Assembly: GCA_023229765.1 (NCBI GenBank)
Contig: JALNYO010000010.1
Span: 40,003 to 104,002 of the forward strand
DNA: 64,000 nt
Reading direction: 5' to 3'
From: Syntrophales bacterium
Lineage (GTDB): Bacteria; Desulfobacterota; Syntrophia; Syntrophales; UBA5619
Positions 7,028-42,024 of the stretch are shown piece after piece. Under the pieces are notes generated by a model. It searched no databases, had not been told where the DNA came from, and saw only the letters and a list, made by a program, of their open reading frames with translations. The translations under genes were made by a program, and so were the position numbers. Within the stretch, counting starts at the first letter, position 1. Every line of letters begins with the position of its first letter.

Positions 7028-7045
7028 CTCGATAGAGACTGTTTC

Positions 7046-7660: not shown

Positions 7661-7680
7661 TTTTTTACCTCACTTGTCTA

Positions 7681-25805: not shown

Positions 25806-25861
25806 AAAGATTGGTTGGAAGGCATATCGACGGCGGCTTAGCGATTTGAAGGAGCAAGTAT

Positions 25862-26179
25862 TTGATAACATTTTCCGAAGCGGAATTGAGGGCTAAGGTT
25901 GTTAAGGCGATGGGCCATCCCGTGCGGATGATGGTCATCGGATTTATCCTGGATGGTGAACGCTCCTTTTCCGAAATATTCAAATTATTCAATTTGGATA
26001 AATCCACTATTTCCAAACATCTGCTTGTTCTGAAAGAATCAGGCATCATTTCTTCACGGAAAGTCGGCAGGGAAATGATCTATAGACTCGAAGAGACATG
26101 TGTGGCGAATTTCTTTTCATGTGCGACGGCCGTTGTTCAGAACAAGGTGGAGAAGCAATTGGAGGGGCTGAAGAGATAA
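25862..26179 (+). CDS. ArsR/SmtB-family transcriptional regulator
   Basis: 105 aa with wHTH GHPVRMMVIGFILDGERSFSEIFKLFNLDKSTISKHLLVLKESGII. It has no alpha-3 CxC metal site but does have a C-terminal CVANFFSC (C-X7-C) pair. TTG start after AGGAG. Confidence 0.8.
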   Translation: MITFSEAELRAKVVKAMGHPVRMMVIGFILDGERSFSEIFKLFNLDKSTISKHLLVLKESGIISSRKVGREMIYRLEETCVANFFSCATAVVQNKVEKQLEGLKR

Positions 26180-26195
26180 TTTTTTTTACGTTATG

Positions 26196-26211
26196 TTGGC
26201 AAATTTGCCAA
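26196..26211. promoter_or_regulatory. Perfect 16-nt palindrome TTGGCAAATTTGCCAA, candidate ArsR-type operator upstream of the extH-like operon
   Basis: It lies between the ArsR-family gene stop (26179) and the extH-like start (26332). The dyad symmetry is typical of ArsR/SmtB operators. Confidence 0.45.
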
Positions 26212-26331
26212 TCAACCTTTTGCGGGTAAGCGTCTATAGAACTGAAAAGACAGTCCAAGAGAAGAAGGGGGGTGAAGGCGGGCACTTTGTAACGTCAGGA
26301 GGAAAATCCATCAATGATATGAGGAGGAGGT

Positions 26332-27774
26332 ATGTATAAAGACATGTTGAAAAATGGCAAAATGCGTTTGGTTTCATTGTTAGGTGCGATAGCAATAGTT
26401 TTTTTTGTTCTCTGGGGCTGCGGCGGTGGGACATCAAGTTATGATGCTGTCAATTACGACCCGGTGTTGACAAAAACCGCCAATGCGTTAGTCGATGCCA
26501 CAACATTGAAGGGCTGGATGGATCAGGGGCTTGTACAGGGAGTGTCTTCTCCATTCGTTGCAGGTGAAAAAGTCGTTATCCTTGATTACAAGGATGCAAC
26601 GGCCTATGCCAGTGGTCACATTCCGGGTGCCGTCAGGGTGGACGGCGGCGAACTGCTGCTTACCCGTCTCGAAGGCGTTGCGGAAATGGGGTCGCTTGTC
26701 ACTGACGGTCCGCATATGGATGCAATTATACAAAGGGCCGGCATCGATGCAAATACAACAATTGTTTTCACAAGCTCCAGTGTTTCCAACGCAACCAGAG
26801 CATATGCCACATTCCGCTATTGGGGATTCCCTAAGAGCCGGTTGAAAGTGCTCGATGGGGTCGATACCGTCTGGAAGGCTGCAAATCCAATGAGTCTGGC
26901 CACCCCGACTATAAAGCCCTCCAGTTATTGCGTTACGCCGAACGGCGTCAATCGCGTCCAGACGCAGCTTCGCGCTTCGCTGGGCGAAATGATGCATGCA
27001 GTTCAGAATTATGATGGGACGAAACACGCCATCATCGACGATCTGAGCAATCCGGCGAACGGCCTGGCAGTGCCGGTGACTTCGACTTCCACCTGGTCGG
27101 GGAATATTTACAAGGGGATTCCCGGATCGACATCGGGGTTACTTCCCTATGCAGTCAGCGCCACGACGGAATATGTGGTTTTTGAAGGACATATGAAAAA
27201 TGCCGTAAATTTGTACGCTACGAACATGTATGCTGGCAACGTATTCTTCCCCGCAGACGATGGCACTCCCGCCAGCCTCAAAAGCAAGTTCAACGCCGTC
27301 GGGATGGACGAGACAAAAACCGCTTATATCTACTGCCGCGCTGGCAACTTCGCGACGATTGAATTCTTTGCCCTGGATGGCATCTTGAACTGGAACGTCG
27401 TATGGTATGACGGTTCCTGGGGACAGTGGGCGCTCATGGCGGACAAGAAGGGCGGCAAACTAAAAGCGGGATCGATCTGGTCAACATACCCGCTCAGCGT
27501 TTCCGATCCCGTGCCGAACACTACCGATACGCTTCTGCCGAAATATGTAAGGGATGCGGTTGACGGAGTCACCTACAACACGGACAACACACCGGTCGGA
27601 AGTGCCGTAAAATATCCGATACAGCCTTTGCCCTATTACATTAATCTGGATGTCTTTACCTCGGTCACCGATCCGGCGGCAAACCAGATAGAAGCGACGG
27701 ACAAGGCTTACAAAAGCCCGCTTAGCTCACCCTCGGGCGGTTCTTCCGGCGGTTCCTCCGGCGGCGGCTGCTAA
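26332..27774 (+). CDS. extH: Tandem-rhodanese lipoprotein (ExtH-like) with Gly/Ser tail ending in Cys
   Basis: 480 aa. The lipobox is VLWGC. The first rhodanese domain is inactive and the second carries the catalytic loop YCRAGNFAT. The C-terminus reads SSPSGGSSGGSSGGGC-stop. The rhodanese-porin-small protein-pentaheme order matches my recollection of Geobacter ExtHIJK. Confidence 0.7.
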   Translation: MYKDMLKNGKMRLVSLLGAIAIVFFVLWGCGGGTSSYDAVNYDPVLTKTANALVDATTLKGWMDQGLVQGVSSPFVAGEKVVILDYKDATAYASGHIPGAVRVDGGELLLTRLEGVAEMGSLVTDGPHMDAIIQRAGIDANTTIVFTSSSVSNATRAYATFRYWGFPKSRLKVLDGVDTVWKAANPMSLATPTIKPSSYCVTPNGVNRVQTQLRASLGEMMHAVQNYDGTKHAIIDDLSNPANGLAVPVTSTSTWSGNIYKGIPGSTSGLLPYAVSATTEYVVFEGHMKNAVNLYATNMYAGNVFFPADDGTPASLKSKFNAVGMDETKTAYIYCRAGNFATIEFFALDGILNWNVVWYDGSWGQWALMADKKGGKLKAGSIWSTYPLSVSDPVPNTTDTLLPKYVRDAVDGVTYNTDNTPVGSAVKYPIQPLPYYINLDVFTSVTDPAANQIEATDKAYKSPLSSPSGGSSGGSSGGGC

Positions 27775-27844
27775 AAGGAAGGCTATGGATTGAGTCTGCT
27801 CGTGAAAAGAAAAAATTAAAACAACCTAATAAAAGGAGAACCCT

Positions 27845-29053
27845 ATGCCAAAAAACAGAATAACAGCAAAACTCGCAGCAGTTGTCCTTGGTGTGGCGCT
27901 GCTCGCCGGGACCGCCTATGCCGGTCCGCAAGTGAAGTTCGGGCCGAAAGATGAAGGTCTGCTGCAACTCGACTACAAGGGGCAATTGCAGATGACCATG
28001 CGCGACAATGGTTCCGGGACCAACAAGGAATCTGCCACCTATGATTTCAACTTTCGCCGCAACCGCCTGGCTCTCATGGGCAAATATGGCGAGCTGATAA
28101 GCATTTATGTGCAGACGGAGTACACCGAGCATCAGGATCTTGGCACGCTCACTGTAAGCGATACCGACAGCGGTTACGAGTTTCAGATGCTCGACGCGGT
28201 AGTGCGGTTCAACTTCGCTGATGCGTTCAAGGTGAACGCCGGCAAGTTCAAATACAACCTTTCGCGTGAAAACCTGGAAGCATGTGAAATGCCTCTTACC
28301 CTCGATCGGTCTCTCTTCATCCGCGCCCCCTATGTGACCACCCGTGACAAGGGTATCGCGATCTGGGGGAACCTGTTTGATGACATGTTCCAGTATCGGG
28401 CCGATGTCATGGAGGGGAGAAATGCCACTACCGCGGCCGCTCCCCAGCCGGAATCGAGTTTCCGGTATTCGGTGCGCGGCCATGTGACGCTTCTGGATCC
28501 GGAAAACGACTATGGCTATAAAGGGACCTATCTGGGGAATAAACAGGTTCTGACCATCGGCGCCGCCTATCAGTTTGAACCAGACGTCGCTTATGCGGAT
28601 ACCGTTGCCAAAACCGACGCGAAGGATTACAAGGCGTGGACGGCCGACATCTTTTTTGAATACCCCATAGAGAATTTTGGCACGGTTACCGCTTCCGCCG
28701 CCTATGAGGATATCGATCTCGGCAACGCATACAAGGGTTTTAATCCCGATCCAGATACGATTGGATTAAAGGGGGAGAAGAACGGTTTTTACGTAAAGGC
28801 CGGCTACATGCTGCCGAATACCCCGCTGCAGTTCTTTGCCAGATATGAAAAGTGGGCGTTTGCAAACCTGAATGGCATTGTCGACCAGGAGGTGGAATGG
28901 TACGGTGGAGGCTTCAATTACTACATCCGGGGCCAGAACCTGAAGATCACGCTTGAAGCGAGCAATACAAGTTTTGACAAGGGGACCGGGACCAGCGCCG
29001 ACAGTACCGAAAGTTTTATGACTTTCGTCGCGCAGCTTCAGGTTATCTTCTAA
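27845..29053 (+). CDS. extI: Outer-membrane beta-barrel porin (ExtI-like)
   Basis: 402 aa. The signal peptide ends in AGTAYA-GP. Alternating beta-strand periodicity is visible, and the C-terminal FVAQLQVIF has the terminal Phe typical of OMPs. Confidence 0.75.
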   Translation: MPKNRITAKLAAVVLGVALLAGTAYAGPQVKFGPKDEGLLQLDYKGQLQMTMRDNGSGTNKESATYDFNFRRNRLALMGKYGELISIYVQTEYTEHQDLGTLTVSDTDSGYEFQMLDAVVRFNFADAFKVNAGKFKYNLSRENLEACEMPLTLDRSLFIRAPYVTTRDKGIAIWGNLFDDMFQYRADVMEGRNATTAAAPQPESSFRYSVRGHVTLLDPENDYGYKGTYLGNKQVLTIGAAYQFEPDVAYADTVAKTDAKDYKAWTADIFFEYPIENFGTVTASAAYEDIDLGNAYKGFNPDPDTIGLKGEKNGFYVKAGYMLPNTPLQFFARYEKWAFANLNGIVDQEVEWYGGGFNYYIRGQNLKITLEASNTSFDKGTGTSADSTESFMTFVAQLQVIF

Positions 29054-29071
29054 GAAAAAAAGATCATATCC

Positions 29072-29114
29072 ATACGCCAGGCCGCATAATTTCGAATACG
29101 GCGGCTTGGCGTAT
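29072..29114 (+). other. Strong intercistronic stem-loop between porin and small-protein genes
   Basis: ATACGCCAGGCCGC pairs with GCGGCTTGGCGTAT (14 bp including one G-U) around a 15-nt loop. No U-tract follows. Confidence 0.5.
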
Positions 29115-29142
29115 CAAAACACTAAATGAAAAGGAGGATAAG

Positions 29143-29463
29143 ATGTCCGGAAGAATCAGGATCGGGATTATGGCGTTTTTGCTGGTTGTTTTAATGTCGG
29201 CATCGGCGATTGCGGCGGAGAAAATTAACTGCAAGGTTGCGAAGGTATCCGGGGACAAGGTTACCGTGGCAATCGAGGGAGCGGTTCCCCCGTGGGTGAA
29301 GAGCGGGGCTACGGTTATCGGCGGCGGCGGCGCCCCGAAGATTGTTTCAATGAAGGGCAATGAAGTTGTTCTGCGCTTCAGCAGAGCCAAGGCTGCCAAA
29401 ATCAAGGTTGACTCAACGATTTCCCTGGAAGAGTCGTCTGGGGATGAGCTTCAGGGCTGCTGA
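29143..29463 (+). CDS. extJ: Small secreted protein (ExtJ-like) ending in Cys
   Basis: 106 aa. The signal peptide reads MAFLLVVLMSASAIA-AEK and the mature protein is about 80 aa. The C-terminus is SSGDELQGC-stop. RBS AAAGGAGG lies upstream. Confidence 0.6.
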   Translation: MSGRIRIGIMAFLLVVLMSASAIAAEKINCKVAKVSGDKVTVAIEGAVPPWVKSGATVIGGGGAPKIVSMKGNEVVLRFSRAKAAKIKVDSTISLEESSGDELQGC

Positions 29464-29552
29464 TTCTAAAGAGGGGGGCGACCGCACTTTCGCGTGTAAG
29501 GAGCTTTCAACATGCGGTTGTCTTCCCTAAAACAGGTTAGAGAGAGGTGGGT

Positions 29553-30905
29553 ATGATAAAAATACCAATGAAAGGTCTGCTGTTGGCGGTTATAGGGATC
29601 ATCGCCTTCGCTTCTCTTTCGTTTGCGGAAAAGGCCGGGATCGGTTGGAAAGAAACCATCGTCGCCAAATCCGGAAAGGCAAAGAGCGTTGCAGAGCTGG
29701 CAAAGATGTATGATTCGAGCTCGTGCGTTGAATGTCACAAGGAGCAGCATGACGAGGCTCAGAAGTCTATTCATTCGCGCTCGATTTTCGGCACGGCGCG
29801 TACAGCGATGACGATCATGAGCTCTATTGAAAATGGCTGGATGGAACAGCCTTATTCGGGGGTGAAGAGTCCGAAAGATGTGAAGGTGGAGCATCTGATG
29901 GGATGTGCGAAGTGCCATCTGCCGCAGCTTGCGGACGCCGAGGACTCGGTTGCCCAGGAGATTGTTACGTCTCTTTACCGCTGGAAAGACGCTCTGAAGA
30001 GGAAGGACAAGGAGACGGCGCAGAAGGAAGAAGCCAAACTGAAGAGCGTTTCCATTAACTGTCTTGTCTGCCATAACCGTAACGCCATCACCCATAAATG
30101 GCAGGATGGCTATCCGAAGGCGGGCGTTGTTTACGGCTCGAAGGATGGGGATCATCCCTCGGATGCTTTTCCGAAGATGGCAGTCAGTCCCATTATGAAA
30201 GAGGCGATTCAGTGCGGCCAGTGCCACGGGCTCGGCCCGAATTTCGAGCTGGACGAACCGACCCAGTGCTGCACTTCTTACGGCAGCTATCTTTGGTCGT
30301 ACAAATCCGAGGTGGGACAAGAGTCCTGTCAGGGTTGCCACATGGAAAAGAGCAAGCTCGGTCATAATATCCAGGGATATAGGGACCCGGCGATGATTAA
30401 GGATGCGGTCGACTTCAAGGTCGAGGCATTCGGATACTACTGGCGCGACATAACCGACCTTGTTCCGAAGGTTGTGGTGAAGGTGGAGATGATCAACCGG
30501 TCGGGACACTCCATCCCCGATGGGTGACCGACCCCCAACCGACTGGTTCTGTCGGTAATTGCAACAACGAAGGATGGCGAAGAGGTTTTCAATCAGGAAA
30601 AGGTTTACATGCCGGTGCCGCAGCAATTGGCCCGGGGGGACCGGATGGGACGAGGCCCTTATGAAAAGAGCGGGATAATCGAGGATACTGGTCTCCCTCC
30701 CGGCAAGGCTGTTCATGAGCGTTTCGATATTCTTTATCCGTTCGGCGATGTAAAGGAGAACGGGAAGACGGTCAATAAACAGCTGGCGCACGATCTGAAT
30801 GTCGAAGTGAAGCTCTGGTACCTTCCGTTCGGGTCGATGAATTCGAATGCGTTTCTCTGGCGTGAATTCAAAAAGACCGTCAGCGTCAGCACGAAAGGGA
30901 AATAG
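29553..30905 (+). CDS. extK: Periplasmic pentaheme c-type cytochrome (ExtK-like), probable selenoprotein with UGA at 30525-30527 read as Sec
   Basis: Signal peptide plus five CxxCH motifs (CVECH, CAKCH, CLVCH, CGQCH, CQGCH). Track ORFs 29547-30527 and 30609-30905 share one frame. The 81 nt between them contain no stop. The UGA falls inside a contiguous beta-rich domain (VKVEMINRSGHSIPDG-U-PTPNRLVLSVIATTKDGEEV). A SECIS-like hairpin follows (see feature 30525-30556). Confidence 0.65.
30525..30556 (+). other. In-frame UGA plus SECIS-like hairpin
   Basis: The UGA is at 30525-30527. The stem ACCGAC (30538-30543) pairs with GTCGGT (30551-30556) around the 7-nt loop UGGUUCU, which contains GGUU. 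The first loop G is 20 nt from the U of UGA. Confidence 0.55.
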
Positions 30906-30959
30906 CAGACACGGGGACAGTTAAGTCCGGTGTCGGACAACAGCAAGCAGTTGAAAGCG

Positions 30960-30992
30960 ACCGACGGGGGGAAATCCCGTCGGTTCTTTTTT
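30960..30992 (+). terminator. Rho-independent terminator ending the extHIJK-like operon
   Basis: ACCGACGGG-GGGAAAT-CCCGTCGGT (9-bp GC-rich stem) is followed by TCTTTTTT, 55 nt after the stop at 30905. Confidence 0.75.
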
Positions 30993-31092
30993 GAGAATTC
31001 GTGCAAACAGCTTGACTGAGCGATGAGTTGATTATAGAAGCATTCCGTAAAGACGATCAGCGCAACTGCTGACATAACCGTGATCGACGCCA

Positions 31093-32931
31093 ATGGTTTA
31101 TAACCGGCTTTTTCCGTCATTTTTGATTCTGCTGTCTCTTCTCGGCTGTAACCAGCCGGATATGCGGACATCGACCTGCGAATCCTGCCACAGGGGCATC
31201 GAGATACTCTCTCCTGCTCACCATTCCTGTGTTTCCTGCCATCGCGGAGACGACCGGACGCTCGATGCCAAAAAAAGTCATCAGAACATGCTGGGACCGA
31301 AGAATCCATCCGCTCCCGATACCTGGGAAAAGGGCTGCGGAGAGTGTCACTACCACCAGCTAAGCCGCATGCGTTCCAATCTGATGTACACGACGACTGG
31401 CATGATCAAGAATATCCAGTTGACCTGGGAAGGTGAAAACGGGCGTCTTTACGCGGGCAAGGCCGACCGGGTGTTCGACGCCCGGGGGCATGAGCTGCTG
31501 CTCAACGGTGTCGCCGATCTCGATCATCTCTCCGGCGAATTGTACCGCAAGTTCTGTTCCCAGTGCCATGTGGGGATCGATACCACCAACGTTTACACGG
31601 CGAGCCACGCGGCTGGCTGCGCGGCCTGCCATTTCCCATACAACGACCGGGCGACTTACGAAGGGAAGGAGCCGTCGCTCAAAGGTAAATCACCCTATTC
31701 CGCAAGCCACCAGATGGAAAAACTTCCAGACAACAAGGTTTGCGTTCGCTGTCACAACCGCAGCGGCCGGATCGCCCTTTACTACGAGGGATTCAATGAT
31801 GGCAGCAACTCTCTCGTGCCGACCAGAAACGGATCTCCCGGACCGGTCATGTTGAGCGGCAACCGCAATGCCACCCACATCGCCCCGGACGTTCATTTTG
31901 TCGCGGGCATGGACTGCATAGACTGTCATACTTCGCGGGACGTCATGGGGGACGGTTACGCGTATGAAAACATGTATCTCCAGACGGAGATCAGTTGCGA
32001 GGATTGCCATGGCGGGGGAGATTCCCGGCCCCGGTACCGCGAAATAACGAGGGAAAGCGATGAGGCGCTGCGCGAGTCTCAGCAGTACAAGATCAAGATG
32101 CGTCCGGGGATGAAGATGATGCTTACCGCCAAAGGGCGGATGTATTCCAATGTTTTTTACCAGGATGGGATTGTCTATGTTCTCGGCAAAAGGAGCGGGA
32201 AACTGTTCAAAAGCAAGGTTATTTCCGGAACTCCGGAGCATGCCGTCTTCGGGCATGACCGTCTGGAATGCTATGCCTGCCATTCGCGCACGGTGGCCCA
32301 GTGTTATGGATGCCACACCAACTATGACAAAACAAAGCCGGGGATAGATTATATCAAGCAAATGGTCACCCCCGGCCGCTTCAGCGAGACCGAGGATTAC
32401 CGGGCGCTCTATCCGTTTCCACTGGCGCTGAATCAGCGGGGCAAGATTTCCCCTGTCACGCCCGGTTGTCAGACTTTTGTCACCGTCATCGAGGCGGATG
32501 GAACTGTTTCCAAAAACGAATACGTGGCAAAGTTCAAAGGAAAGAGTCAGTTGCGTTTTGCCCCGTTTTATTCGCATAATACCGGAACGAAGGCGATCGG
32601 GTGCAATGAATGCCACGCCAATCCATCATTTCTCGGTTTCGGCCAGCATGTGGTCGAGGGAAACAGCATAAACGCCACGATGATCTGCGAAAAATCGGAG
32701 AGCAAGCCGCTGGACGGCTATATCACCATGGAACAGGGAAAGGTGCGGTCCTTCTCCGCCATCACCCGTGAAAATTCCCGCCCTTTGAACGGAAAAGAGG
32801 TGCGGCGCACGCTCGCCGCCAATCTCTGCATCGTTTGTCATGACAAGGCAAAAGACCCGATTTACCGAAAGGAACTTGATTATAATGCGCTTGATGATAA
32901 GCTGCATCGCCGCCTGCTTGCTGTTCATTAA
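31093..32931 (+). CDS. Dodecaheme c-type cytochrome lipoprotein
   Basis: 612 aa. The lipobox is LSLLGC. I counted 12 CxxCH motifs: CESCH, CVSCH, CGECH, CSQCH, CAACH, CVRCH, CIDCH, CEDCH, CYACH, CYGCH, CNECH, CIVCH. Confidence 0.85.
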   Translation: MVYNRLFPSFLILLSLLGCNQPDMRTSTCESCHRGIEILSPAHHSCVSCHRGDDRTLDAKKSHQNMLGPKNPSAPDTWEKGCGECHYHQLSRMRSNLMYTTTGMIKNIQLTWEGENGRLYAGKADRVFDARGHELLLNGVADLDHLSGELYRKFCSQCHVGIDTTNVYTASHAAGCAACHFPYNDRATYEGKEPSLKGKSPYSASHQMEKLPDNKVCVRCHNRSGRIALYYEGFNDGSNSLVPTRNGSPGPVMLSGNRNATHIAPDVHFVAGMDCIDCHTSRDVMGDGYAYENMYLQTEISCEDCHGGGDSRPRYREITRESDEALRESQQYKIKMRPGMKMMLTAKGRMYSNVFYQDGIVYVLGKRSGKLFKSKVISGTPEHAVFGHDRLECYACHSRTVAQCYGCHTNYDKTKPGIDYIKQMVTPGRFSETEDYRALYPFPLALNQRGKISPVTPGCQTFVTVIEADGTVSKNEYVAKFKGKSQLRFAPFYSHNTGTKAIGCNECHANPSFLGFGQHVVEGNSINATMICEKSESKPLDGYITMEQGKVRSFSAITRENSRPLNGKEVRRTLAANLCIVCHDKAKDPIYRKELDYNALDDKLHRRLLAVH

Positions 32932-34135
32932 CCCGGCGGGCGGCGCTGCCGGTAAAAACTGCACATCCTGTCATCAGGTTGTATTGAAAGGCATCCATGC
33001 GGCGCTTTCGTGCGCATCCTGCCACCGCGAAAAGCCGGACGTCATCGCCGATCCGGCATCCGGAAAGCATCATGCCGCCGGCTGCGTCGGCTGCCATCAG
33101 GGTTACGGCGCCCTGTTCGATCATGCCATGGCGACCAGAAGCAGGGAGAAGCTCTTTGTTCAGCGAACTATCGGCAACAGCGACTCCGGTTTTTTCGGAA
33201 AAAACTGCGGCTCCTGCCACCTGAAGAGTTGCACCGACTGCCACGGGGGGAAGGGGCACAACATCGTCAAGGCAGCGGACAAAAGCTGCATGGCCTGTCA
33301 CAAGGGGTATTACGTCGGGATGGAGTACTACGGGATGGCGCCCCGGGAAGACAGCAGCCGTTACCAGAGAGGCAAGGCAGCTTTTGGCGAAAAATCCCTG
33401 AAAATGCTCCCGGACGTTCACGCGGAGGCGGGCATGACCTGCGGGGCCTGTCACTCCATGAAAAGCCTCGTTACGGGGGCGAAGTCTTCCCGGAAATGCG
33501 TCGATTGCCATCAGGCGCAGAAAACCGTCGTCGAGCACCGCATAAAGGCTCACATGGAAAAGCTGGAATGTTATGCCTGCCATTCCGCCTGGGCGGCGCA
33601 GGAGTACGGAACCTTCTATCTCCGTTTTATAAACAGCCCAGTGCAGAGGGAGTTTGAGGCAGTCAAAAACAGAGGGGAATATGTGAAAAGTTCCTATCTC
33701 AAGAAACAGGATGCCCCGCCTTTGGGGGTCAATGCCGCAGGCAGAGTCAGTCCAATCCGGCCCGAGTTTATTTTCTACGGAACGACCGTCAAAAACAACC
33801 GGCCGGAAGGAAAGGAAAGCCGGCTGCTTGCCGCCGAATGGAAGGCCTTTTTCCCGCATACGATAAGGCGGGGGACTCTCATGTGCGATGGCTGCCATGA
33901 AAATTCCCGGCGTTTTATTATGGAAAAAAAAGAGGACAGGATTTATAACCTTCCTGCCGACGGGATGACGCTCCCCTCTTTCTGGGAGCGAACTGGCCAG
34001 AAGGTTGTCAATGGAGATTTTCTGCCCCGTGAACGCTATCTGCGGATGTCGAAAAAAACGCCGGCTTATTGGAGAGGATACCTGGAAAAATGGCAAAAAC
34101 TGGTCAATCGCGTCGACGGTTCCTCGTCGCATTAG
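32885..34135 (+). CDS. Decaheme c-type cytochrome
   Basis: I counted 10 CxxCH motifs: CTSCH, CASCH, CVGCH, CGSCH, CTDCH, CMACH, CGACH, CVDCH, CYACH, CDGCH. I prefer the start at ATG 32885 (MRLMISCIAACLLF..., a short signal or possible lipobox IAAC), which overlaps the upstream gene end. Confidence 0.8.
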   Translation: MRLMISCIAACLLFINPAGGAAGKNCTSCHQVVLKGIHAALSCASCHREKPDVIADPASGKHHAAGCVGCHQGYGALFDHAMATRSREKLFVQRTIGNSDSGFFGKNCGSCHLKSCTDCHGGKGHNIVKAADKSCMACHKGYYVGMEYYGMAPREDSSRYQRGKAAFGEKSLKMLPDVHAEAGMTCGACHSMKSLVTGAKSSRKCVDCHQAQKTVVEHRIKAHMEKLECYACHSAWAAQEYGTFYLRFINSPVQREFEAVKNRGEYVKSSYLKKQDAPPLGVNAAGRVSPIRPEFIFYGTTVKNNRPEGKESRLLAAEWKAFFPHTIRRGTLMCDGCHENSRRFIMEKKEDRIYNLPADGMTLPSFWERTGQKVVNGDFLPRERYLRMSKKTPAYWRGYLEKWQKLVNRVDGSSSH

Positions 34136-34482
34136 CGTTTCTGGCAACAGGGCTTCTCTCGCTGACGAGGTTTTTGAAACCGGCCGCCAAGAGCAAAAAG
34201 ACGTTGCTCGCCGTGGCCGAGAAAGACATTCCGAGTAACGGCGCCCTCGTGTATAAGGAGGCGCGAGTCGCCATCATCAGGGAGTCGGGTAAAATATCTG
34301 CCGTCAGTCTGGTTTGCACCCATCTGGGCTGCACCGTTTCCGCGACGACCGATGAGCTTGTCTGTCCGTGCCACGGAAGCAGTTTTGACTGGAAGGGAAT
34401 CGTCATCAAGGGACCGGCGGACCGGCCTTTGCCGCAGTACAAGGTGGAAGAACGCGACGGACGGATTGTGGTACTGCTGTAA
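34090..34482 (+). CDS. Rieske 2Fe-2S protein with Tat signal and membrane anchor
   Basis: The twin-arginine motif SRRRFLVALAFLATG is present. Rieske boxes are CTHLGC and CPCHGS (bc1/b6f type). I prefer ATG 34090 over the TTG at 34069. Confidence 0.85.
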   Translation: MAKTGQSRRRFLVALAFLATGLLSLTRFLKPAAKSKKTLLAVAEKDIPSNGALVYKEARVAIIRESGKISAVSLVCTHLGCTVSATTDELVCPCHGSSFDWKGIVIKGPADRPLPQYKVEERDGRIVVLL

Positions 34483-34515
34483 TTATGGATTGACAGAGAC
34501 AAGAAGCGGAAACAT

Positions 34516-35178
34516 TTGCCAATTTTGACGGCAATCCCTCAGCGAGGAGAAGATTTTTTGTTCAAGGATTTTTTTAAACACATATTTCCCCGGATTGTAC
34601 TGCTGGGCAATCTGCGGATAACCTATACCTTCTGCCTGGGCGGGCTGGCCTTTACCACGTTTTTACTGCTTATCGCCTCCGGGCTGCTGCTCCTTTTTTA
34701 TTACCAGCCTGCGCCGGAACGGGCGTTTCAATCCATCCTGTTTCTGGAAGAATCGGTCTGGGGGGGGCGGTATCTGCGGAGCCTGCACCGGCTTTCTTCC
34801 CACTTTTTTCTCGTCCTCATTTTTCTCCACACCCTGCGGGTCATACTTACCGGGGCCTACCGCAAGCCGCGTGAGTTCAACTGGGCGATCGGGTTTTCAC
34901 TCCTCTGCATTACGATTTTCGATGCGTACACCGGCTATCTGCTGCCAATGGACCAGCTCAGCCTGTGGGCGACCCAGACGGGGATGGAGCTGGTCGGGAC
35001 AACGTTTCCGGGACCGCAGGTACGGGGGATCCTTGTGCCCGACGGAGTCGGCCAGCCGATGTCGCTGCTGCGTTTTTATATACTGCACATCGTGCTGCTG
35101 CCACTGTCGGTACTTTCTCTTTCCGTTCTCCATTTCTACCGCATCCGGAAAGACCGGGGACTTTTGCCGTATCTGTGA
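34516..35178 (+). CDS. Cytochrome b (b6-like N-terminal half, four-helix heme-b domain)
   Basis: The sequence carries RSLHRLSSHFFLVLIFLHTLRVILTGAY and RFYILHIVLLPLSVLSLSVLHFYRIRK, the conserved His pairs of helices B and D. The start is uncertain: TTG 34516, or TTG 34558 preceded by GAGGAG. Confidence 0.85.
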   Translation: MPILTAIPQRGEDFLFKDFFKHIFPRIVLLGNLRITYTFCLGGLAFTTFLLLIASGLLLLFYYQPAPERAFQSILFLEESVWGGRYLRSLHRLSSHFFLVLIFLHTLRVILTGAYRKPREFNWAIGFSLLCITIFDAYTGYLLPMDQLSLWATQTGMELVGTTFPGPQVRGILVPDGVGQPMSLLRFYILHIVLLPLSVLSLSVLHFYRIRKDRGLLPYL

Positions 35179-35211
35179 GTCTTTTTTCATCTTAGTCGCT
35201 GAGGTGCGATT

Positions 35212-35628
35212 GTGAAAGATTACATAAAGAGTTCGCCGCATTTTTTTCGCCTGATAAAACTGGCGGCAGCGCTTTTCTGCGGGGCGGTTTTCGTGCTGGC
35301 GTTCTTTATCACGGCGCCGCTTCAGGCGCCGGCAGACATCCGCCATGTTCCCAATCCGGTCAAGTCGGCATGGTTTCTGCTCTGGATTCAGGAACTTGTC
35401 AGCTATTCCCGCTATCTTTCGTATCTGGTCGCCGCGATCGGAGCTTTTTTTCTGCTCATCCCCTGGCTGCCGATCAGCCCCCCGGCCACCCGGGCCAGAT
35501 GGTTTGCCGGCGGCCAGTTCCCGGTGACAGTCATCACGGTTGTCACGTTTACGGCCATTTTAGCGTTGACGATTATAGCCATGTTCTTCAGGGGTGAAAA
35601 TTGGTCTTTTATCGCGCCTGTCTGGTAG
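35212..35628 (+). CDS. Cytochrome b C-terminal-half / subunit-IV-like membrane protein
   Basis: 138 aa with 3 predicted TM helices. PNPVKSAWFLLWIQELVSY occupies the position of the PEWYF-type motif of PetD/cytochrome b C-terminal domains. GTG start after GAGGTG. Confidence 0.6.
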   Translation: MKDYIKSSPHFFRLIKLAAALFCGAVFVLAFFITAPLQAPADIRHVPNPVKSAWFLLWIQELVSYSRYLSYLVAAIGAFFLLIPWLPISPPATRARWFAGGQFPVTVITVVTFTAILALTIIAMFFRGENWSFIAPVW

Positions 35629-36422
35629 CAATATTACTTGCGGTCTCTCTCGCGGATTACGCCTTTCCCGCCCGGCAGAGCGTCTGTATCACCTGCCACC
35701 AGCCTCACTATTCCGGCAAGGGGAGCTGTGTGAGCTGTCACAGGGGTGACGACCGTACCGGGCGTAAGGAAATCGCCCATTATGATCTTGTTGCCGGCAG
35801 ATTTGCCCACTATAAAATCGAGGGGAGTCCGGTGGCGGAGCGGGGGAAAAAACTTCTGGAGCGATTCTCCTGCCGGCGCTGTCATCGTTACGCGGAAAAG
35901 GGGAACCATCTGGCGGGGAGTCTCGATGTGACGGGAGCGACTGGAAAGGTCCGTGATATCTACGAGTCAATCAGGGTGCCGGTGCTCTTCATGCCGAACT
36001 TCCATGCGAACGACGCCCAGATTGCCGATCTGGTGAACGCCATCCTGGCGCGTGCAAAATTTCAAAAGCCGCCGGTGGGAGAAACCGCCCTTATAGTTCA
36101 TTTTCAGGACGTGAAAAATATCCGGAAGAACGTATTTGCCGGAAAATGCGGCAAGTGCCACAAAATCCTCAGCGAACAATCGGGCGGGCTGGGGAGCGGC
36201 TATATTGGTCCGAACCTGTCCGGGCTTTTTTCCGAATTTTATCCCAGGACGTATCGCGACGCGGAATCATGGAATCCCGACAAGCTCAAGAAATGGCTGG
36301 AAAATCCACGTGATATCAGGATAAACGCCATGATGCCGCCGGTGCGGCTTGCACCCGAGGAGTTTGAGCAGCTGCGGGGAATCATCCAGCTCGATAAATC
36401 CTTGCCCGATGCACCCAGGTAG
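35601..36422 (+). CDS. Tetraheme c-type cytochrome (last domain class-I-like with Met ligand region)
   Basis: 273 aa with a signal/anchor ACLVAILLAVSLA. Four CxxCH motifs are present (CITCH, CVSCH, CRRCH, CGKCH). The C-terminal GPNLSG...WLENP...MMPP is typical of class I cytochrome c. Confidence 0.8.
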   Translation: MVFYRACLVAILLAVSLADYAFPARQSVCITCHQPHYSGKGSCVSCHRGDDRTGRKEIAHYDLVAGRFAHYKIEGSPVAERGKKLLERFSCRRCHRYAEKGNHLAGSLDVTGATGKVRDIYESIRVPVLFMPNFHANDAQIADLVNAILARAKFQKPPVGETALIVHFQDVKNIRKNVFAGKCGKCHKILSEQSGGLGSGYIGPNLSGLFSEFYPRTYRDAESWNPDKLKKWLENPRDIRINAMMPPVRLAPEEFEQLRGIIQLDKSLPDAPR

Positions 36423-36665
36423 TTTTTAAGCGTTGAATATTCGGTTGATTGAAGTGAGCTCCCCCCTTCTCTTACATGTTGTAAGTACAGCGATTCCTTT
36501 TTGATGGCATTATCAGAAAATAAGAACCCTTTGGGCCTGCCCTTTGCTCTATAGCCAATTGCATTGTCTTCAGAAATGTGTATATATACATCTACACATG
36601 AAGTGTATGGTCTGCTTTTTATGATTGTTAAACCTCTATAAGAGAAAGGGCTGAAGGAACAAATC

Positions 36666-36938
36666 ATGAAAAATGTTAACGCGTTGAAGATAAGAAATCA
36701 GTTAGGCGCAATCTTGGAGGAACTCAGCGAAACCGGAGAGCCGGTTCTTATCAGCAAGGGACGAAAGGTTCGGGCCGTGTTGGTTACACCCGAACAGTTT
36801 GAAAGACGGTTTCTCGATTTTCAGACGGAAGAAAAAAAGCGGGAGCTTCTTGAGAAGATAGAATCCCTTCGGGCCGGGCGAATCGGGGGAAAAAGCAGCA
36901 CGGATGTGCTACGAGAGTTAAGAGGGTATGAAGTATGA
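36666..36938 (+). CDS. Type II antitoxin, Phd/YefM family
   Basis: 90 aa. The N-terminus VNALKIRNQLGAILEELSETGEPVLISKGRKVRAVLV is the Phd/YefM fold signature. It overlaps the downstream PIN gene by 4 nt (ATGA). Confidence 0.8.
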   Translation: MKNVNALKIRNQLGAILEELSETGEPVLISKGRKVRAVLVTPEQFERRFLDFQTEEKKRELLEKIESLRAGRIGGKSSTDVLRELRGYEV

Positions 36939-37363
36939 TCTGGATCGTTGATGCCTCCGTTACCGTGAAGTGGTTCCTTGCAGAAGAGCGCAATTCCCCT
37001 GCCGATGCCGTGTTGAAGCGCTGGATCGATCAGCCGGAATTTTTTGCGATTCCGGAGCTGTTCTGTTTTGAGGTGTTTTCCGTTCTCTGTCGCATTCATC
37101 CCCGCGGGCGTGAAGTTTTCGTCGAGGGCGTTCTGCCGCTGATTCAGGGTGGAGTTCTCCGGCAGCCAATGACCGAGCAACTGGCCAGCGATGCGGCAAA
37201 CTTAGTGGCGGACGGGCTCACCGGTTACGACGCGTGTTACGCGGCGCTTGCCCGCCAGTTGGGAGGCATGTGGCTCACCTTCGATGCGCGTGCTCATCGC
37301 CTGATCGCCTCCGAGGCCATTTCCCACAATCTGGCCGAAGGCCTGCCGGCGGGGTGGCTTTAA
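36935..37363 (+). CDS. vapC: PIN-domain toxin VapC
   Basis: 142 aa. The sequence MIWIVDASVTVKWFLAEE carries the first acidic PIN residue, and further conserved D/E positions are present (E in ELFCFEV, D in YDACY). Confidence 0.8.
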   Translation: MIWIVDASVTVKWFLAEERNSPADAVLKRWIDQPEFFAIPELFCFEVFSVLCRIHPRGREVFVEGVLPLIQGGVLRQPMTEQLASDAANLVADGLTGYDACYAALARQLGGMWLTFDARAHRLIASEAISHNLAEGLPAGWL

Positions 37364-37597
37364 TTGCTTAAATATCTCTAACAGAAAATGAAAAACTTGA
37401 CGCTGCCGTGTGCATCTTTGCCGCCGAGGTATTGATGTAGCTCGCCCGAATAAAAATTATCTTAAAACCCGTTTGGACACCATTCGGTAAAAACGGCTTG
37501 ATTTTCACGGCTGAAAGAAATATTACTCCCGAACATTATAAGGGTAAGTTGGCAGCGCGTTTTCGCCGTTGGATAATTGAAAAACGAGGTGATTTAA

Positions 37598-37894
37598 TTG
37601 GATAATATCAAGATCAGCAAGGATGAAGTCGCCTATGTGGCCCATCTGGCACGTCTCGAATTCAAGGAAGAGGAAACGGAAAAATTCACCGCCCAGATGA
37701 ACGATATCCTCAGTTATATGGATAAGCTCTCCGAGGTGGATACGGCAGGGGTGACGCCGCTGGCCAACGCGACCCTGCGCAAGAACGCCTTCCGGACGGA
37801 CGTCGTCGGAGAGTCCCTTCCCCCGGAGCAGTCGCTCGCCAATGCGCCGGAGACACGCGGCGGGTTTTTCCAGGTGCCGAAGATAATCGAATAA
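37598..37894 (+). CDS. gatC: Asp/Glu-tRNA(Asn/Gln) amidotransferase subunit C
   Basis: 98 aa. The sequence ISKDEVAYVAHLARLEFKEEETEKFTAQMNDILSYMDKLSEVDT is canonical GatC. TTG start. Confidence 0.9.
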   Translation: MDNIKISKDEVAYVAHLARLEFKEEETEKFTAQMNDILSYMDKLSEVDTAGVTPLANATLRKNAFRTDVVGESLPPEQSLANAPETRGGFFQVPKIIE

Positions 37895-37991
37895 CGAGGA
37901 GAAATCGTAACAAATCGTCACGCCGGTGCAAACCGGGGGTCACGAAAGATCAGTGGCTGTCCCCAATTAAGAGAAGAAAGAGAAATGCTTT

Positions 37992-39449
37992 ATGGAATTG
38001 AATCAACTGACAATTCACGAACTTAAAGAAAAACTCCGTTCCGGCGCGACCACCGCCGAGGAGATAACGGCCTCATCCTTTGCCCGAATTGAGGCGGTGG
38101 AAAAGGATGTCCATGCGTATATCACGCTGATGAAAGAGACGGCTTTTGCCGAGGCGAAACGGGCTGACGAGGCGATTAAAAAAGGCGAAGGCGGGCTGCT
38201 GGCCGGCATCCCGATCGCGCTGAAGGACATCGCCTGCACAAAGGGAACCCTTACGACCTGCGGCTCCCGGATGCTTTCCAATTTCGTGCCGCCGTACGAC
38301 GCGGCCGTCATTGAGAAACTGCGCGAGGCGGGGGCGGTATTCACCGGTAAGACCAACATGGATGAATTTGCAATGGGCTCCTCCACCGAGACATCGTTTT
38401 ATGGCACATCCAGAAACCCGTGGGATTTAGAGAGAATTCCCGGCGGCTCCAGCGGCGGTTCGGCGGCGGCTGTAGCGGCAGACGAGTGCATCGCCGCGAT
38501 CGGCTCTGACACGGGCGGCTCAATTCGCCAGCCGGCGGCTCTTTGCGGCATCGTCGGAATGAAGCCTACCTACGGCCGGGTTTCCCGGTATGGGCTCATT
38601 GCCTTTGCCTCCTCTCTCGACCAGATCGGCCCGTTCACAAAGGATGTGGAGGACTGCGCGCTCATGATGAATGTCCTTTCCGGCTACGACAGACGCGATT
38701 CGACGTCGGCTGATCAGGAAGTACCCGATTACCGGCAGTTTCTCGGCAAGGGAATCGCTGGCTGGAAAGTTGGCATTCCGAAGGAGTATTTTGTAGGCGG
38801 GCTCGACCCCGAGGTTGAGGAGGCGGTCCGCGGGGCAATCAAAACCATCGAGGAAGCCGGCGCCCAATGCGTGGAGGTTTCGCTTCCCCATACGGAATAC
38901 TGCCTCGCCGTTTACTATATCGTGGCGCCGGCGGAGGCCTCCTCGAATCTCGCCCGTTACGACGGCGTTAAATATGGCTTCCGTTTTCCGGAGGGGCGCG
39001 ACCTTTTAGACATGTATAAAAAAACCCGTTCGGCAGGGTTTGGAAACGAGGTAAAAAGGCGCATTATGATAGGTACTTATGCGCTTTCATCGGGGTATTA
39101 TGACGCCTATTATAAGAAGGCCTCTCAGGTGCGCTCGCTGATCAAGCGGGATTTCGACGAGGCGTTCAAGACCTGCGACGCGCTTCTGACGCCGACGACG
39201 CCGACCCCAGCCTTCCGCATCGGCGAAAAAACGGACGACCCGATGCAGATGTATCTTTCCGATCTTTTTACCATTTCGACAAATCTGGCGGGAATTCCCG
39301 GGATATCCGTACCCTGCGGCTACAGCGCCTCCGGTCTGCCGATTGGGGTACAGTTTCTGGCGGGGCACTTCCAAGAGGGCCGTCTGCTCCAGATCGCCTC
39401 GGAGTACGAAAAACACGCCCAAATCGAGAAAAGGAGACCTAATCTCTAA
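37992..39449 (+). CDS. gatA: Amidotransferase subunit A
   Basis: 485 aa with the amidase signature [13 protein letters not shown]...[13 protein letters not shown]. Confidence 0.95.
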
Positions 39450-40882
39450 TGAATTTTGAACCTGTAATCGGGCTGGAGGTGCACGCCCAGCTTTTGACTG
39501 ATACCAAGATCTTCTGCGACTGCTCCACCAAATTCGGCGCGGAGCCGAACAGCCATACCTGCCCGGTCTGCCTCGGGATGCCCGGGGTGCTGCCGGTGCT
39601 GAACAAAAAGGTCGTCGATTTTCTGCTGAAAATGGCGATGGCAACCAATTGCAAGATCAACCGGGAATCGAGTTTCGCCCGAAAAAACTATTTTTATCCA
39701 GATCTTCCGAAGGGCTACCAGATATCCCAATACGCCGAGCCGCCCGTTGAACATGGCTGGATCGATATCGAAACCGAGGGCGGCAAAAAGCGGATCGGGA
39801 TAACCCGCATCCACATGGAGGAGGATGCGGGCAAGCTGATTCACGACGAAAACAGTCCGGCGAGCTATGTCGATCTGAACCGCACCGGGGTGCCCCTGAT
39901 CGAGATCGTGGGCGATCCGGACCTTCGCAGCGCTGAGGAAGCGGCGGCTTATCTCCGGCGGATTCACGAAATCCTTGTCTATCTGGAGATCTGCGACGGC
40001 AACATGGAGGAGGGGAGCTTCCGCTGCGACGCGAATATCTCCCTGCGTCCGGTCGGACAGAAGGAATTCGGCACCAGGACCGAGCTCAAGAACATGAATT
40101 CCTTCCGGAATGTTCAGCGCGCCCTCGAATACGAGATCAAACGTCAGCAATACCTGCTCGAAAGCGGCGGCGTGGTGGTGCAGGAAACCCGCCTGTGGGA
40201 CGACGCTGCGGGGGTGACCAAATCGATGCGGAGCAAGGAGGAGGCCCACGACTACCGCTATTTCCCCGAACCTGATCTTGTTCCCATAGTGGTTGACGAC
40301 GAGTGGCAAGACGAAATCCGCCGCGCCATGCCGGAGTTGCCCCTGGAAAAGCGGGAGCGTTTTTCCAGCGAATACCAGCTTTCCGCCTATGACGCCGGGG
40401 TGCTTACCCAAAGCCGGGCGCTTGCCGACTATTTCGAAGAGGTCGCCCGCCTTTCCGGACAGCCGAAGGCGGCCGCGAACTGGGTAATGGGCGATATCCT
40501 GCGGTTTTTGAACGACGAGAAGAAAACCGTCGGGGAGTGCCCGGTTTCCCCAGCCAACCTCGCCGCGATGATCAGGCTGATTCAGGAGGGGACGATCAGC
40601 GGCAAGATGGCCAAGGATATCAGCGAGGCGATGTACAAAACCGGCGGAACGCCGGAAGAGATCATCAAGGAAAAGGGTCTCGTCCAGATCACCGACGGGG
40701 ATGCCCTCGCGGCAACACTTTCCGCAATCCTGGCAAAAAACCCCGGGCAGGTCGCCCAGTATCAGTCCGGAAAGGAAAAGCTCTTCGGTTTCTTTGTCGG
40801 TCAGGCGATGAAGGCGACCGGAGGCAAGGCCAATCCCCAGATGCTTAACGACCTGCTGAAAAAAATGCTGGCAAAACATTAA
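39449..40882 (+). CDS. gatB: Amidotransferase subunit B
   Basis: 477 aa. The sequence [15 protein letters not shown]...KIFC...[13 protein letters not shown] is canonical GatB. Its start overlaps the gatA stop by 1 nt. Confidence 0.95.
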
Positions 40883-42024
40883 TGGATCCCCTGAAGGACC
40901 CGATCCAGACGCTTTTCTGGAAAGACAACGCCGTCATCCTGCTTGATCAGCGGGCCCTGCCGATCGAGGAGAATTATCTGACCTGCACCGATTACCGGCA
41001 GATTGTCGCTGCGATCAAAAACCTGACGGTCCGCGGCGCTCCGGCCATCGGCGTCGCGGCGGCAATGGGAATCGCCCTCGGCGCCCTTTCCCTCTCCGGC
41101 GAGTCACCCCTCCAGATAGAGCATAATTTTGACGAAATATGCAGTCAATTCTCGGCCTCCCGCCCGACCGCCCGGAACCTGTTCTGGGGGATAGAGCGAA
41201 TGCGCGGCCGTTTTAACGAATCCCTGAAGCAGTTGTCAAAAAACGGTCAAAGTTTGGAAAATCACAATTATTTATCCCCAGCCAGTTCTCCCCAGTCAAT
41301 CAGTGCAACGGATATCGCGGTTATTCAAAATATCCTGATCGCCGAGGCCATTCAGATATGCGAGGAGGATATCGCGATCAACATCCGCCTCGGCCAAAAC
41401 GGCAGCGATTTAATACCCGACGGCGCCCGGATCCTTACCCACTGCAACGCCGGGGCGCTCGCCACCGCCGGCTATGGAACGGCCCTCGGCGTCGTTCGGG
41501 CGGCCTGGGAAAAAGGCAAAAAACTCCACGTTTACGCCGACGAAACACGCCCGGTTCTCCAGGGGGCAAGGCTTACCGCATGGGAACTGACCCGCGAAGG
41601 CATCCCCTGCACACTGATTACCGACAATATGGCGGCTTTTCTGATGAAACAAAAGAAGGTCGATCTGGTGATCGTTGGGGCCGACCGCATCGCCGCGAAC
41701 GGCGATACTGCAAACAAGATCGGTACTTATGGACTCGCAGTCCTTGCCCGCGCCCACGGACTCCCCCTCTATGTCGCCGCCCCCCTCTCGACAATCGATA
41801 CCTCCCTCGCCGATGGCAGCCAGATCCCCATCGAGGAGCGGGATCACGCCGAGGTAACTCACTGCGGCGGCGCCCAGACCGCCCCGGCAGGCGTCTGCGT
41901 CTGGAATCCCGCCTTCGACGTCACCCCGGCAGACCTCATAACCGCGATCATCACCGAAAAGGGCGTCATCCGTCCGCCCTTTGACGCCGGCATCAAATCT
42001 CTTCATCAGCCGTCCGCAAAATAA
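40882..42024 (+). CDS. mtnA: S-methyl-5-thioribose-1-phosphate isomerase (eIF-2B alpha/beta/delta family)
   Basis: 380 aa with the sequences LDQRALP...VRGAPAIGVAAAMG...THCNAGALAT...VGADRIAANGDTANKIGTY. It is translationally coupled to gatB (TAATG). Confidence 0.85.
   Translation: MDPLKDPIQTLFWKDNAVILLDQRALPIEENYLTCTDYRQIVAAIKNLTVRGAPAIGVAAAMGIALGALSLSGESPLQIEHNFDEICSQFSASRPTARNLFWGIERMRGRFNESLKQLSKNGQSLENHNYLSPASSPQSISATDIAVIQNILIAEAIQICEEDIAINIRLGQNGSDLIPDGARILTHCNAGALATAGYGTALGVVRAAWEKGKKLHVYADETRPVLQGARLTAWELTREGIPCTLITDNMAAFLMKQKKVDLVIVGADRIAANGDTANKIGTYGLAVLARAHGLPLYVAAPLSTIDTSLADGSQIPIEERDHAEVTHCGGAQTAPAGVCVWNPAFDVTPADLITAIITEKGVIRPPFDAGIKSLHQPSAK

Follow-up and report, generated by a model that had tools for sequence, protein, structure and literature searches.

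In a 64,000-nucleotide stretch of DNA from a Syntrophales bacterium (GenBank assembly GCA_023229765.1, contig JALNYO010000010.1, positions 40,003 to 104,002 of the forward strand; hereafter the window), we analysed an operon at positions 31093-36422 that combines a Rieske/cytochrome b complex with multiheme c-type cytochromes. Six tightly packed open reading frames of 612, 431, 137, 220, 138 and 273 amino acids lie on the same strand (+) and encode, in order, 12, 10, 0, 0, 0 and 4 CXXCH motifs, 26 in total. The spacings from the first to the last gene are -92, -67, +33, +33 and -28 nucleotides. Both the gene inventory and the heme counts had been given correctly in an initial annotation of the locus. 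The genes, under the names justified below, are the following:

31093-32931, +: extM, 612 amino acids, 12-heme c-type cytochrome lipoprotein
32885-34135, +: extN, 10-heme c-type cytochrome; the open reading frame (431 amino acids) opens at 32840, the probable start is ATG 32885
34090-34482, +: extO, Rieske [2Fe-2S] protein, exported by twin-arginine translocation (Tat) and membrane-anchored; the 137-amino-acid reading frame opens with TTG at 34069, the likely start is ATG 34090
34516-35178, +: extP, 220 amino acids, b6-type cytochrome b with four helices; the start may be off by a few codons
35212-35628, +: extQ, 138-amino-acid membrane subunit with three helices, in the place of subunit IV
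35601-36422, +: extS, 273-amino-acid tetraheme cytochrome c

As identity test we used the NCBIfam equivalog models of the 'selenite/tellurite reduction operon' families with their curated cut-offs. Five of the six products were called ExtM, ExtN, ExtP, ExtQ and ExtS, four of them above cut-off. ExtM scored 1074.6 bits against a cut-off of 800 (NF040943, model positions 3-599 of 599) and ExtN 654.1 bits against 200 (NF040967), with an alignment that begins at residue 16 of the long reading frame. ExtQ reached 188.5 bits (cut-off 150) and ExtS 326.2 bits (cut-off 100). ExtP, with 220.5 bits, stayed under its cut-off of 290 (NF040969), yet this was its top-scoring family; the cytochrome b6 model gave 156.6 bits against a cut-off of 325. 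In addition, a Syntrophales protein 96% identical to this ExtQ has already been labelled ExtQ by the NCBI pipeline.

The six genes lie directly downstream of extHIJKL (26332-30905, same strand), with a gap of 187 nucleotides before extM. The upstream features are:

26332-29463, +: extH (rhodanese-like lipoprotein), extI (porin) and extJ, assigned by NCBIfam
29547-30905, +: extKL (MccSep orthologue), selenoprotein with five hemes, probably the operon's redox partner
30959-30985, +: terminator-like hairpin between extKL and extM (consensus match only)

ExtH, ExtI and ExtJ scored 356, 680 and 60 bits, each over its cut-off, and the NCBIfam family 'multiheme c-type cytochrome (seleno)protein ExtKL' matched the N-terminal part of ExtKL with 427.7 bits and its C-terminal part with 83.6 bits. 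That is, the six genes do belong with the Ext-like module that the initial annotation had placed upstream of them.

The same set of genes is known from Geobacter. For G. sulfurreducens, a putative bc complex of the inner membrane was described by Butler et al. in 2010, comprising 12-, 10- and 5-heme cytochromes along with a Rieske protein and a cytochrome b; its conservation extends to all six Geobacter genomes, and its multiple cytochromes were remarked on as novel (PMC2825233). Baymann et al. (2012) placed the split cytochrome b of Geobacter in the 'green clade' of Rieske/cytochrome b complexes, counted seven helices overall, pointed out the heme-ci cysteine and argued for its lateral acquisition (PMC3509893). 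The name extHIJKLMNOPQS was given by Jahan et al. (2018), who listed the same subunits (PMC5877670). The G. sulfurreducens locus is GSU2940-2930, with extHIJKL at GSU2940-2936 and extMNOPQS at GSU2935-2930, and in the study on CbcBA, GSU2930-2935 appears as Cbc6/cbcMNOPQR among the putative inner-membrane quinone oxidoreductases. The cluster is thus near certainly the Syntrophales orthologue of Geobacter extMNOPQS/Cbc6 (cbcMNOPQR, GSU2935-2930). The initial annotation had taken it for an apparently undescribed arrangement, and this claim falls: the cluster has been in the Geobacter literature since 2010, was placed in a tree in 2012 and carries the names extMNOPQS and Cbc6/cbcMNOPQR. The same annotation had allowed that a characterised complex might hide here under another name, which is right for description and naming but not for biochemical characterisation. 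What we have here, in a Syntrophales genome, is a system already described and named, and biochemically uncharacterised.

We made one observation on the family models themselves. The NCBIfam model NF040968 'FeS_ExtO', meant for an iron-sulfur subunit and 416 positions long, matched the decaheme ExtN end to end with 660 bits, and gave no match to the 137-amino-acid Rieske protein. It appears to have been built on the wrong protein, so that automatic annotation may give ExtN the name ExtO and the Rieske protein no name at all.

For residue conservation across the family, homologues were extracted from 80 related loci. ExtO, the Rieske protein, carries SRRRFLV followed by a hydrophobic helix and then by the CTHLGC and CPCHGS boxes. 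It matched the Pfam Rieske domain (E = 5.9e-14), and its top NCBIfam matches were the b6f and bc1 Rieske subunits, all under their cut-offs. The protein is syntenic in 68 related loci (39-91% identity), and the twin arginines and both boxes, including the disulfide cysteines, were invariant in 69 of 69 homologues, as expected of the Tat-type Rieske protein that had been recognised in the initial annotation. Two positions past the box, 68 of the 69 homologues have Phe. In high-potential Rieske proteins, a Tyr at that position hydrogen-bonds the cluster. Since Phe stands in place of this Tyr, ExtO would fit a lower-potential, menaquinol-type centre, by analogy with published mutant work.

ExtP matched the Pfam Cytochrome_B domain (E = 1.5e-32), and among solved structures its closest relatives were chains of cytochrome b6 (E = 9e-35). 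Synteny of ExtP holds in 80 loci, at 60-95% identity. Both His pairs of the b6-like cytochrome b, H91/H105 and H191/H206, were found as initially annotated; they were invariant in 81 of 81 sequences, show b6-type spacing and align with the b6 ligands. Equally invariant (81 of 81) was C40-L-G-G, which aligns with the yCLGG of solved b6, where the cysteine binds heme cn/ci, and which probably marks a heme ci/cn site here as well. The P-x-D-Q-x3-W motif in the cd-loop of the quinol site was also invariant. One further residue, His22 (34579-34581), was invariant in 81 of 81 sequences and is not among the four b-heme ligands.

ExtQ had been described as subunit-IV-like. Its gene position and three-helix topology agree with this description, whereas similarity to PetD went undetected: Pfam found no domain in the protein, phmmer and a 26-sequence profile returned no PDB sequence, and an hhalign comparison with three manually entered PetD sequences was not significant (probability 0.1%, E = 0.49). 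ExtQ as a homologue of subunit IV was therefore not demonstrable by Pfam, by HMMER against the PDB or by hhalign against PetD. Its helices were predicted at residues 9-32, 49-85 and 103-126 by a low-confidence AlphaFold model (34 database homologues; mean predicted local distance difference test score 60, predicted template modelling score 0.37). The family shares an invariant PNPxKSAWFxxWxQE motif. By eye, and in the sole, non-significant hhalign alignment, W54 falls on the Trp of the PEWY motif, which would then read 'SAWF'. Taken together, the sequences show the core of ExtO, ExtP and ExtQ as a 'green-clade' Rieske/cytochrome b complex, in which every residue that binds a cofactor in a b6-type, heme-ci-capable core is in place.

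Of the three multiheme cytochromes, ExtM carries a canonical lipobox (LLSLLG-C19). All of its 12 hemes were kept in 53 of 54 homologues, and nine His and three Met were conserved as possible distal ligands. ExtN homologues have 7-10 hemes, with four His and three Met conserved in the seven-heme core. Pfam detected multiheme c3/c7-type domains in both proteins, which have a region of about 130 amino acids in common, and sequence searches returned no solved relatives of either. Because the conserved potential distal ligands match the conserved heme counts, ExtM and ExtN would seem to serve electron relay rather than catalysis. For the same reason, equal counts of conserved His plus Met and of hemes, we dropped the idea of His/Cys-ligated or five-coordinate catalytic hemes in these proteins. 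Two invariant ExtM cysteines outside the heme motifs, Cys459 and Cys532 (32467-32469 and 32686-32688), could form a disulfide or ligate heme.

ExtS kept its four CXXCH motifs in 74 of 74 homologues. Two closely spaced N-terminal hemes are followed by two class I His/Met domains (Pfam Cytochrome_CBB3, residues 79-145, and Cytochrom_C, residues 176-258), each with one invariant Met (Met131 and Met245), and the last domain aligns with mitochondrial cytochrome c. The class I character claimed for this last domain was thus confirmed, and it extends to the third heme domain. His36 and His60 are conserved and presumably ligate the first two hemes, probably as bis-His centres. ExtS, standing in for cytochrome c1 or f, is the natural candidate to accept electrons from the Rieske cluster. 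The cluster has neither of these two subunits, no homologue of cytochrome f having been found, and as initially annotated it is not a canonical bc1 or b6f operon.

The likely partner of the six proteins is encoded just upstream. extKL forms one reading frame with a single in-frame TGA (30525-30527) and five CXXCH motifs. In a 2025 preprint, ExtKL was renamed MccSep and described as a periplasmic, homotetrameric, pentaheme selenocysteine enzyme that reduces polysulfide and is essential for the respiration of elemental sulfur (S0) in G. sulfurreducens; the route by which its substrate crosses the outer membrane was not known to the authors. These reports agree with the earlier proposal that the upstream module handles sulfur or selenium. 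They also bear on the second half of the conduit that had been proposed, in which electrons leave through an outer-membrane 12-heme cytochrome. That ExtM is a lipoprotein was confirmed, but no sequence evidence places it in the outer membrane, and published fractionation found it in both membranes and in the periplasm (PMC5877670). Since ExtKL is reported as a periplasmic polysulfide reductase, the electron chain may end in the periplasm, not at the outer membrane. A hairpin resembling a selenocysteine insertion sequence was predicted 2 nucleotides past the extKL TGA; it was no stabler than shuffled sequence (z = 0.01) and was not used.

We then compared the gene neighbourhoods of the related loci. 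extP, extQ and extS occur together in 79 of the 80, and extM, extN and extO lie upstream of them in 58. Directly upstream of ExtM, these 58 loci carry ExtKL (25 loci), a molybdopterin oxidoreductase (18), ExtI and/or ExtH only (4) or none of these (11); ExtKL and the molybdoenzyme were never found together (0). Three of the 11 loci with none of these have a TauE-family gene and three have little upstream sequence. The top NCBIfam match of the molybdoenzyme was the thiosulfate reductase PhsA, with 417-500 bits and below cut-off; NrfD-type and 4Fe-4S subunits usually go with this Psr/Phs-like enzyme. Four Geopsychrobacteraceae loci show the order ExtH-ExtI-chaperone-PsrA-PsrB-ExtMNOPQS, and no NrfD/PsrC quinol-oxidising anchor was found anywhere in the 20 kb of these loci. 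The Psr-type reductases there would therefore have to be linked to the quinone pool in some other way. Next to the module, genes for rhodanese, the ExtI porin and TauE recur. Co-conservation of the two Ext modules, a check proposed in the initial annotation, held in roughly half of the loci, whereas another third has a Psr/Phs-type reductase in place of ExtKL. Since ExtKL is swapped in related loci for a functionally analogous sulfur reductase, the neighbourhoods argue that ExtMNOPQS is a self-contained redox module which would serve periplasmic sulfur-compound reductases.

Loci with a Psr/Phs-like molybdoenzyme in the place of ExtKL are L025, L028, L035 and L054 (at about 900-6700), together with L020, L023, L024, L030, L033, L034, L040, L042, L046, L050, L064, L074 and L075. 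We also considered whether loci with extP, extQ and extS and no nearby extMNO represent a separate architecture. This was rejected, as the ones examined show unrelated genes, some on the opposite strand, either between extO and extP or upstream of extP, and probably represent a split or interrupted cluster (L010, L045, L058-L060 and L080; L007, L008 and L051). In some genomes 2.5-3.2 kb separate extO from extP, including genes for a 561- and a 98-amino-acid protein or opposite-strand genes; in others there is no extMNO within 7-10 kb upstream of extP.

On balance, we lean towards the view that ExtMNOPQS is a Rieske/cytochrome b complex of the heme-ci type and mediates electron exchange between the menaquinone pool and sulfur-compound reductases of the periplasm. 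Menaquinol would be oxidised at a site formed by ExtP, ExtQ and ExtO. One electron would pass from the Rieske cluster to the class I His/Met hemes of ExtS and onward through the heme chains of ExtS, ExtN and ExtM to ExtKL (MccSep), while the second would be recycled via hemes bL, bH and ci. ExtKL would then reduce polysulfide in the periplasm, with the ExtI porin letting the substrate in and the ExtH rhodanese handling it. Where other genomes have a Psr/Phs-type molybdoenzyme instead of ExtKL, the module would serve that enzyme. The tie between a Rieske/cytochrome b complex and a sulfur- or selenium-handling module, which was at the heart of the initial annotation, is in this respect reasonable and matches the field's own proposals.

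Several points weigh against such a role. Menaquinol has a potential of about -74 mV and the polysulfide/sulfide couple of about -260 mV, so that electron transfer from menaquinol to polysulfide is uphill at standard potentials. Moreover, the high-potential branch of a Q cycle, with its Rieske cluster and His/Met hemes, is an odd and poor donor to polysulfide. More favourable in-situ potentials, a mode that consumes proton-motive force or bifurcates electrons, or operation in the reverse direction are possible ways out. At the quinol site, a PEWY-type motif is absent; the sole alignable stretch is the invariant K-S-A-W-F, which has no Glu or Asp at position 2, and from the sequences at hand homology of ExtQ to subunit IV cannot be shown. 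Qo-motif variants that lack the acidic residue are known in other lineages, and ExtQ has an invariant Glu61 seven residues beyond the SAWF stretch; ExtP and ExtQ may thus form a working quinol site despite SAWF. The gene neighbourhoods are not uniform either, as about one fifth of the loci with enough upstream sequence have no reductase beside ExtM. In the window itself, extKL and extM are separated by the hairpin, whose stem of 11 bp includes 7 G-C pairs and precedes the T-run CTTTTTTG; among the terminator-like sites in 25600-37000, this stem is the longest (most pairs). It suggests that the two modules may form two transcription units, or that attenuation occurs between them. A promoter scan was uninformative (11 sites versus 7.7 expected, none in the extKL-extM gap). 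As to published work, we found no deletion or biochemical study of ExtMNOPQS/Cbc6 in the literature, and a 2026 review gives the physiological role of Cbc6 as unknown (PMC13591261). Finally, the ext cluster of G. sulfurreducens also responds to Fe(III) (PMC5877670), and extHIJKL contributes to metal-oxide reduction.

A bolder version of the proposal makes the complex the 'complex III' of sulfur respiration, with a SAWF quinol site and interchangeable partners, either ExtKL/MccSep or anchorless Psr/Phs enzymes. Because the step from menaquinol to polysulfide is uphill, such a complex would perhaps run in a mode that consumes proton-motive force or bifurcates electrons, unlike a canonical Q cycle. 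We put this forward tentatively and regard it as doubtful in its full form.

Metal reduction is also the basis of a different explanation, namely that the complex is a general quinol oxidase for extracellular electron transfer, which passes electrons from the Rieske/cytochrome b core along an ExtN/ExtM heme wire to an ExtHIJKL outer-membrane conduit, and from there to Fe(III), Mn(IV) or electrodes. Where a published strain keeps extHIJKL alone, about 50% of Fe(III) oxide and 75% of Mn(IV) oxide are still reduced, the abundance of the ext cluster in Geobacter is Fe(III)-responsive, Cbc6 is listed with other putative quinone oxidoreductases for extracellular electron transfer, and the lipoprotein ExtM was detected in outer-membrane fractions (PMC5877670). 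Yet ExtHIJKL comes without an outer-surface cytochrome, as has been published, ExtKL is reported to reduce polysulfide in the periplasm, and the alternative neighbours of the module are Psr/Phs-type reductases, rhodaneses and TauE proteins, not porin-cytochrome genes. In addition, the host is of a Syntrophales lineage and has, nearby, genes of an NADH-linked formate dehydrogenase or hydrogenase, and metal reduction might be explained indirectly by cycling of sulfide and polysulfide. We therefore consider this explanation improbable. The family names, which read 'selenite/tellurite reduction operon', would instead imply a dedicated respiratory chain for these oxyanions. Deletion of extI impairs the reduction of both (PMC5877670), and the legend of Fig. 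5a in the 2025 preprint refers to a selenite reaction mechanism drawn for MccSep. The genetics, however, concern extI only and none of the extM-extS genes (PMC5877670), the later study sees the physiological role of ExtKL in reducing polysulfide and in S0 respiration, and the alternative neighbours belong to the Psr/Phs family, so that a chain of this kind seems very improbable to us.

The direction of electron flow is a separate matter. Electrons might move from periplasmic cytochromes to menaquinone, as in the 'uphill' bc1 complex of iron oxidisers that is driven by proton-motive force, and would then stem from the oxidation of sulfide or polysulfide, from the disproportionation of sulfur, or from interspecies or cathodic uptake. 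The thermodynamic objection would disappear, since sulfide (about -260 mV) would pass its electrons downhill to menaquinone (about -74 mV). Published work has suggested this direction for a Cbc6 homologue in the bacterial partners of anaerobic methanotrophic archaea, has found MccSep homologues in sulfur disproportionators and in Desulfurivibrio, and has found homologues of ExtM, ExtN and ExtKL in cable bacteria. Nonetheless, ExtKL/MccSep acts reductively and is needed for S0 respiration in the sole organism tested, Rieske/cytochrome b complexes normally oxidise quinol, and the sequence features do not fix a direction. We regard reverse operation, whichever of these electron sources would feed it, as rather unlikely.

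As a discovery, the cluster is of minor weight, since it has been known in Geobacter since 2010 and is named by the NCBI pipeline; the gain lies in a sharper hypothesis for the function of Cbc6. With ExtKL reported as a polysulfide reductase, and with either ExtKL or Psr/Phs enzymes in the neighbourhoods, an 'electron-supply module for sulfur respiration' becomes directly testable. If true, this function would address a long-standing question in the Desulfuromonas/Geobacter group, namely how menaquinol passes electrons to sulfur of low potential, and it would add a working non-photosynthetic heme-ci complex. Should the 'complex III' reading hold as well, sulfur respiration would be an option to which some syntrophs can switch, given that Syntrophales carry the cluster on an apparently recently exchanged block.

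The indication of exchange comes from a comparison with species-representative genomes, in which the closest loci were those of Syntrophus/Syntrophales metagenome-assembled genomes. Protein identity to these loci was 94-99% from ExtI to ExtQ, 89% for ExtS, 85% for ExtJ and only 64% for ExtH, a protein that is frequently replaced according to Otero et al. A block at 27617-36409, running from the extH 3' end through extS, showed 93% nucleotide identity to two of them (L002 and L005), whereas the syntenic flanks 24595-27505 and 37441-40883, which include gatC/A/B, reached only 81% and 84%. This difference points to a recent exchange of the ext block between Syntrophales lineages, by recombination or lateral transfer, or possibly to unusually strong constraint.

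Further genes of the window touch the cluster less directly. An ArsR/SmtB-family regulator is encoded at 25862-26179, just upstream of extH and on the same strand, and is 93% conserved in L002; the BigR family of sulfite sensors is among its weaker matches, which stay under their cut-offs. The protein is a candidate for control of the cluster. Between extS and gatC, two overlapping small genes (36666-37363; 90 and 142 amino acids) are missing from the otherwise collinear locus L002. The 90-amino-acid product has weak similarity to the YefM antitoxin (E = 0.0097), and the pair is probably an inserted toxin-antitoxin system. The region 4840-9375 holds a gene for a cytoplasmic FdhA-like molybdoenzyme (4840-6888, +) and, close to it on the opposite strand, NuoF-like and HoxU/NuoG-like genes. 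Syntrophs typically have NADH-linked formate dehydrogenase or hydrogenase modules of similar make-up, in keeping with a Syntrophales origin. We considered the molybdoenzyme as a possible Psr and rejected it as unrelated: it resembles FdhA, its alignment leaves out the Tat leader region, and the NuoF/HoxU-like genes are close by.

Among known systems, the ExtMNOPQS/Cbc6 cluster of Geobacter sulfurreducens is the direct counterpart: it has the same six proteins in the same order and likewise adjoins a rhodanese, a porin, ExtJ and the selenoprotein ExtKL. Identities to the Geomonas and Citrifermentans orthologues are 42-70%. The cluster described here differs in its host, which belongs to Syntrophales and not Geobacterales, in an ExtP that stays under the NCBIfam cut-off (220.5 versus 290 bits), and in an ExtS that, like most homologues, has an ordinary signal peptide and not a lipobox.

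With b6f and other green-clade complexes, such as the b6c complex of Bacillus and the heliobacterial bc complex, it shares a cytochrome b split into four plus three helices, b6-type His spacing, the CxGG cysteine for covalent heme ci/cn, the P-x-D-Q-x3-W cd-loop and a Tat-type Rieske protein with disulfide cysteines. Unlike b6f, the cluster has neither cytochrome f (PetA) nor the small Pet subunits, none of which were found in it; the c-type partner is the tetraheme ExtS, with 22 further hemes on ExtM and ExtN, the quinol-site motif is SAWF and not PEWY or PDWY, and ExtQ has no homology to PetD detectable by HMMER or hhalign. The Rieske/cytochrome b complexes of anammox bacteria (Kuenenia) also have a split cytochrome b with the heme-ci cysteine and fall in the same part of the tree (PMC3509893). 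Multiheme cytochromes replace a single c1/f in the anammox operons too, and unusual energetics have been proposed for them (PMC12954380). Going by the descriptions, they are set apart by octaheme proteins like hydroxylamine oxidoreductase and by NAD(P)-linked proteins where ExtM, ExtN and ExtS stand here, and by a different metabolism that has no sulfur context.

PsrABC of Wolinella succinogenes and Thermus thermophilus is a functional analogue, as it links the quinol pool to periplasmic polysulfide reduction, and Psr/Phs-like catalytic subunits are encoded directly upstream of ExtM in 18 of the 58 loci. In PsrABC, however, quinol is oxidised by the NrfD-type PsrC, with no hemes and no Rieske protein, whereas here a Rieske/cytochrome b core with its c-type hemes would serve ExtKL or an anchorless PsrAB.

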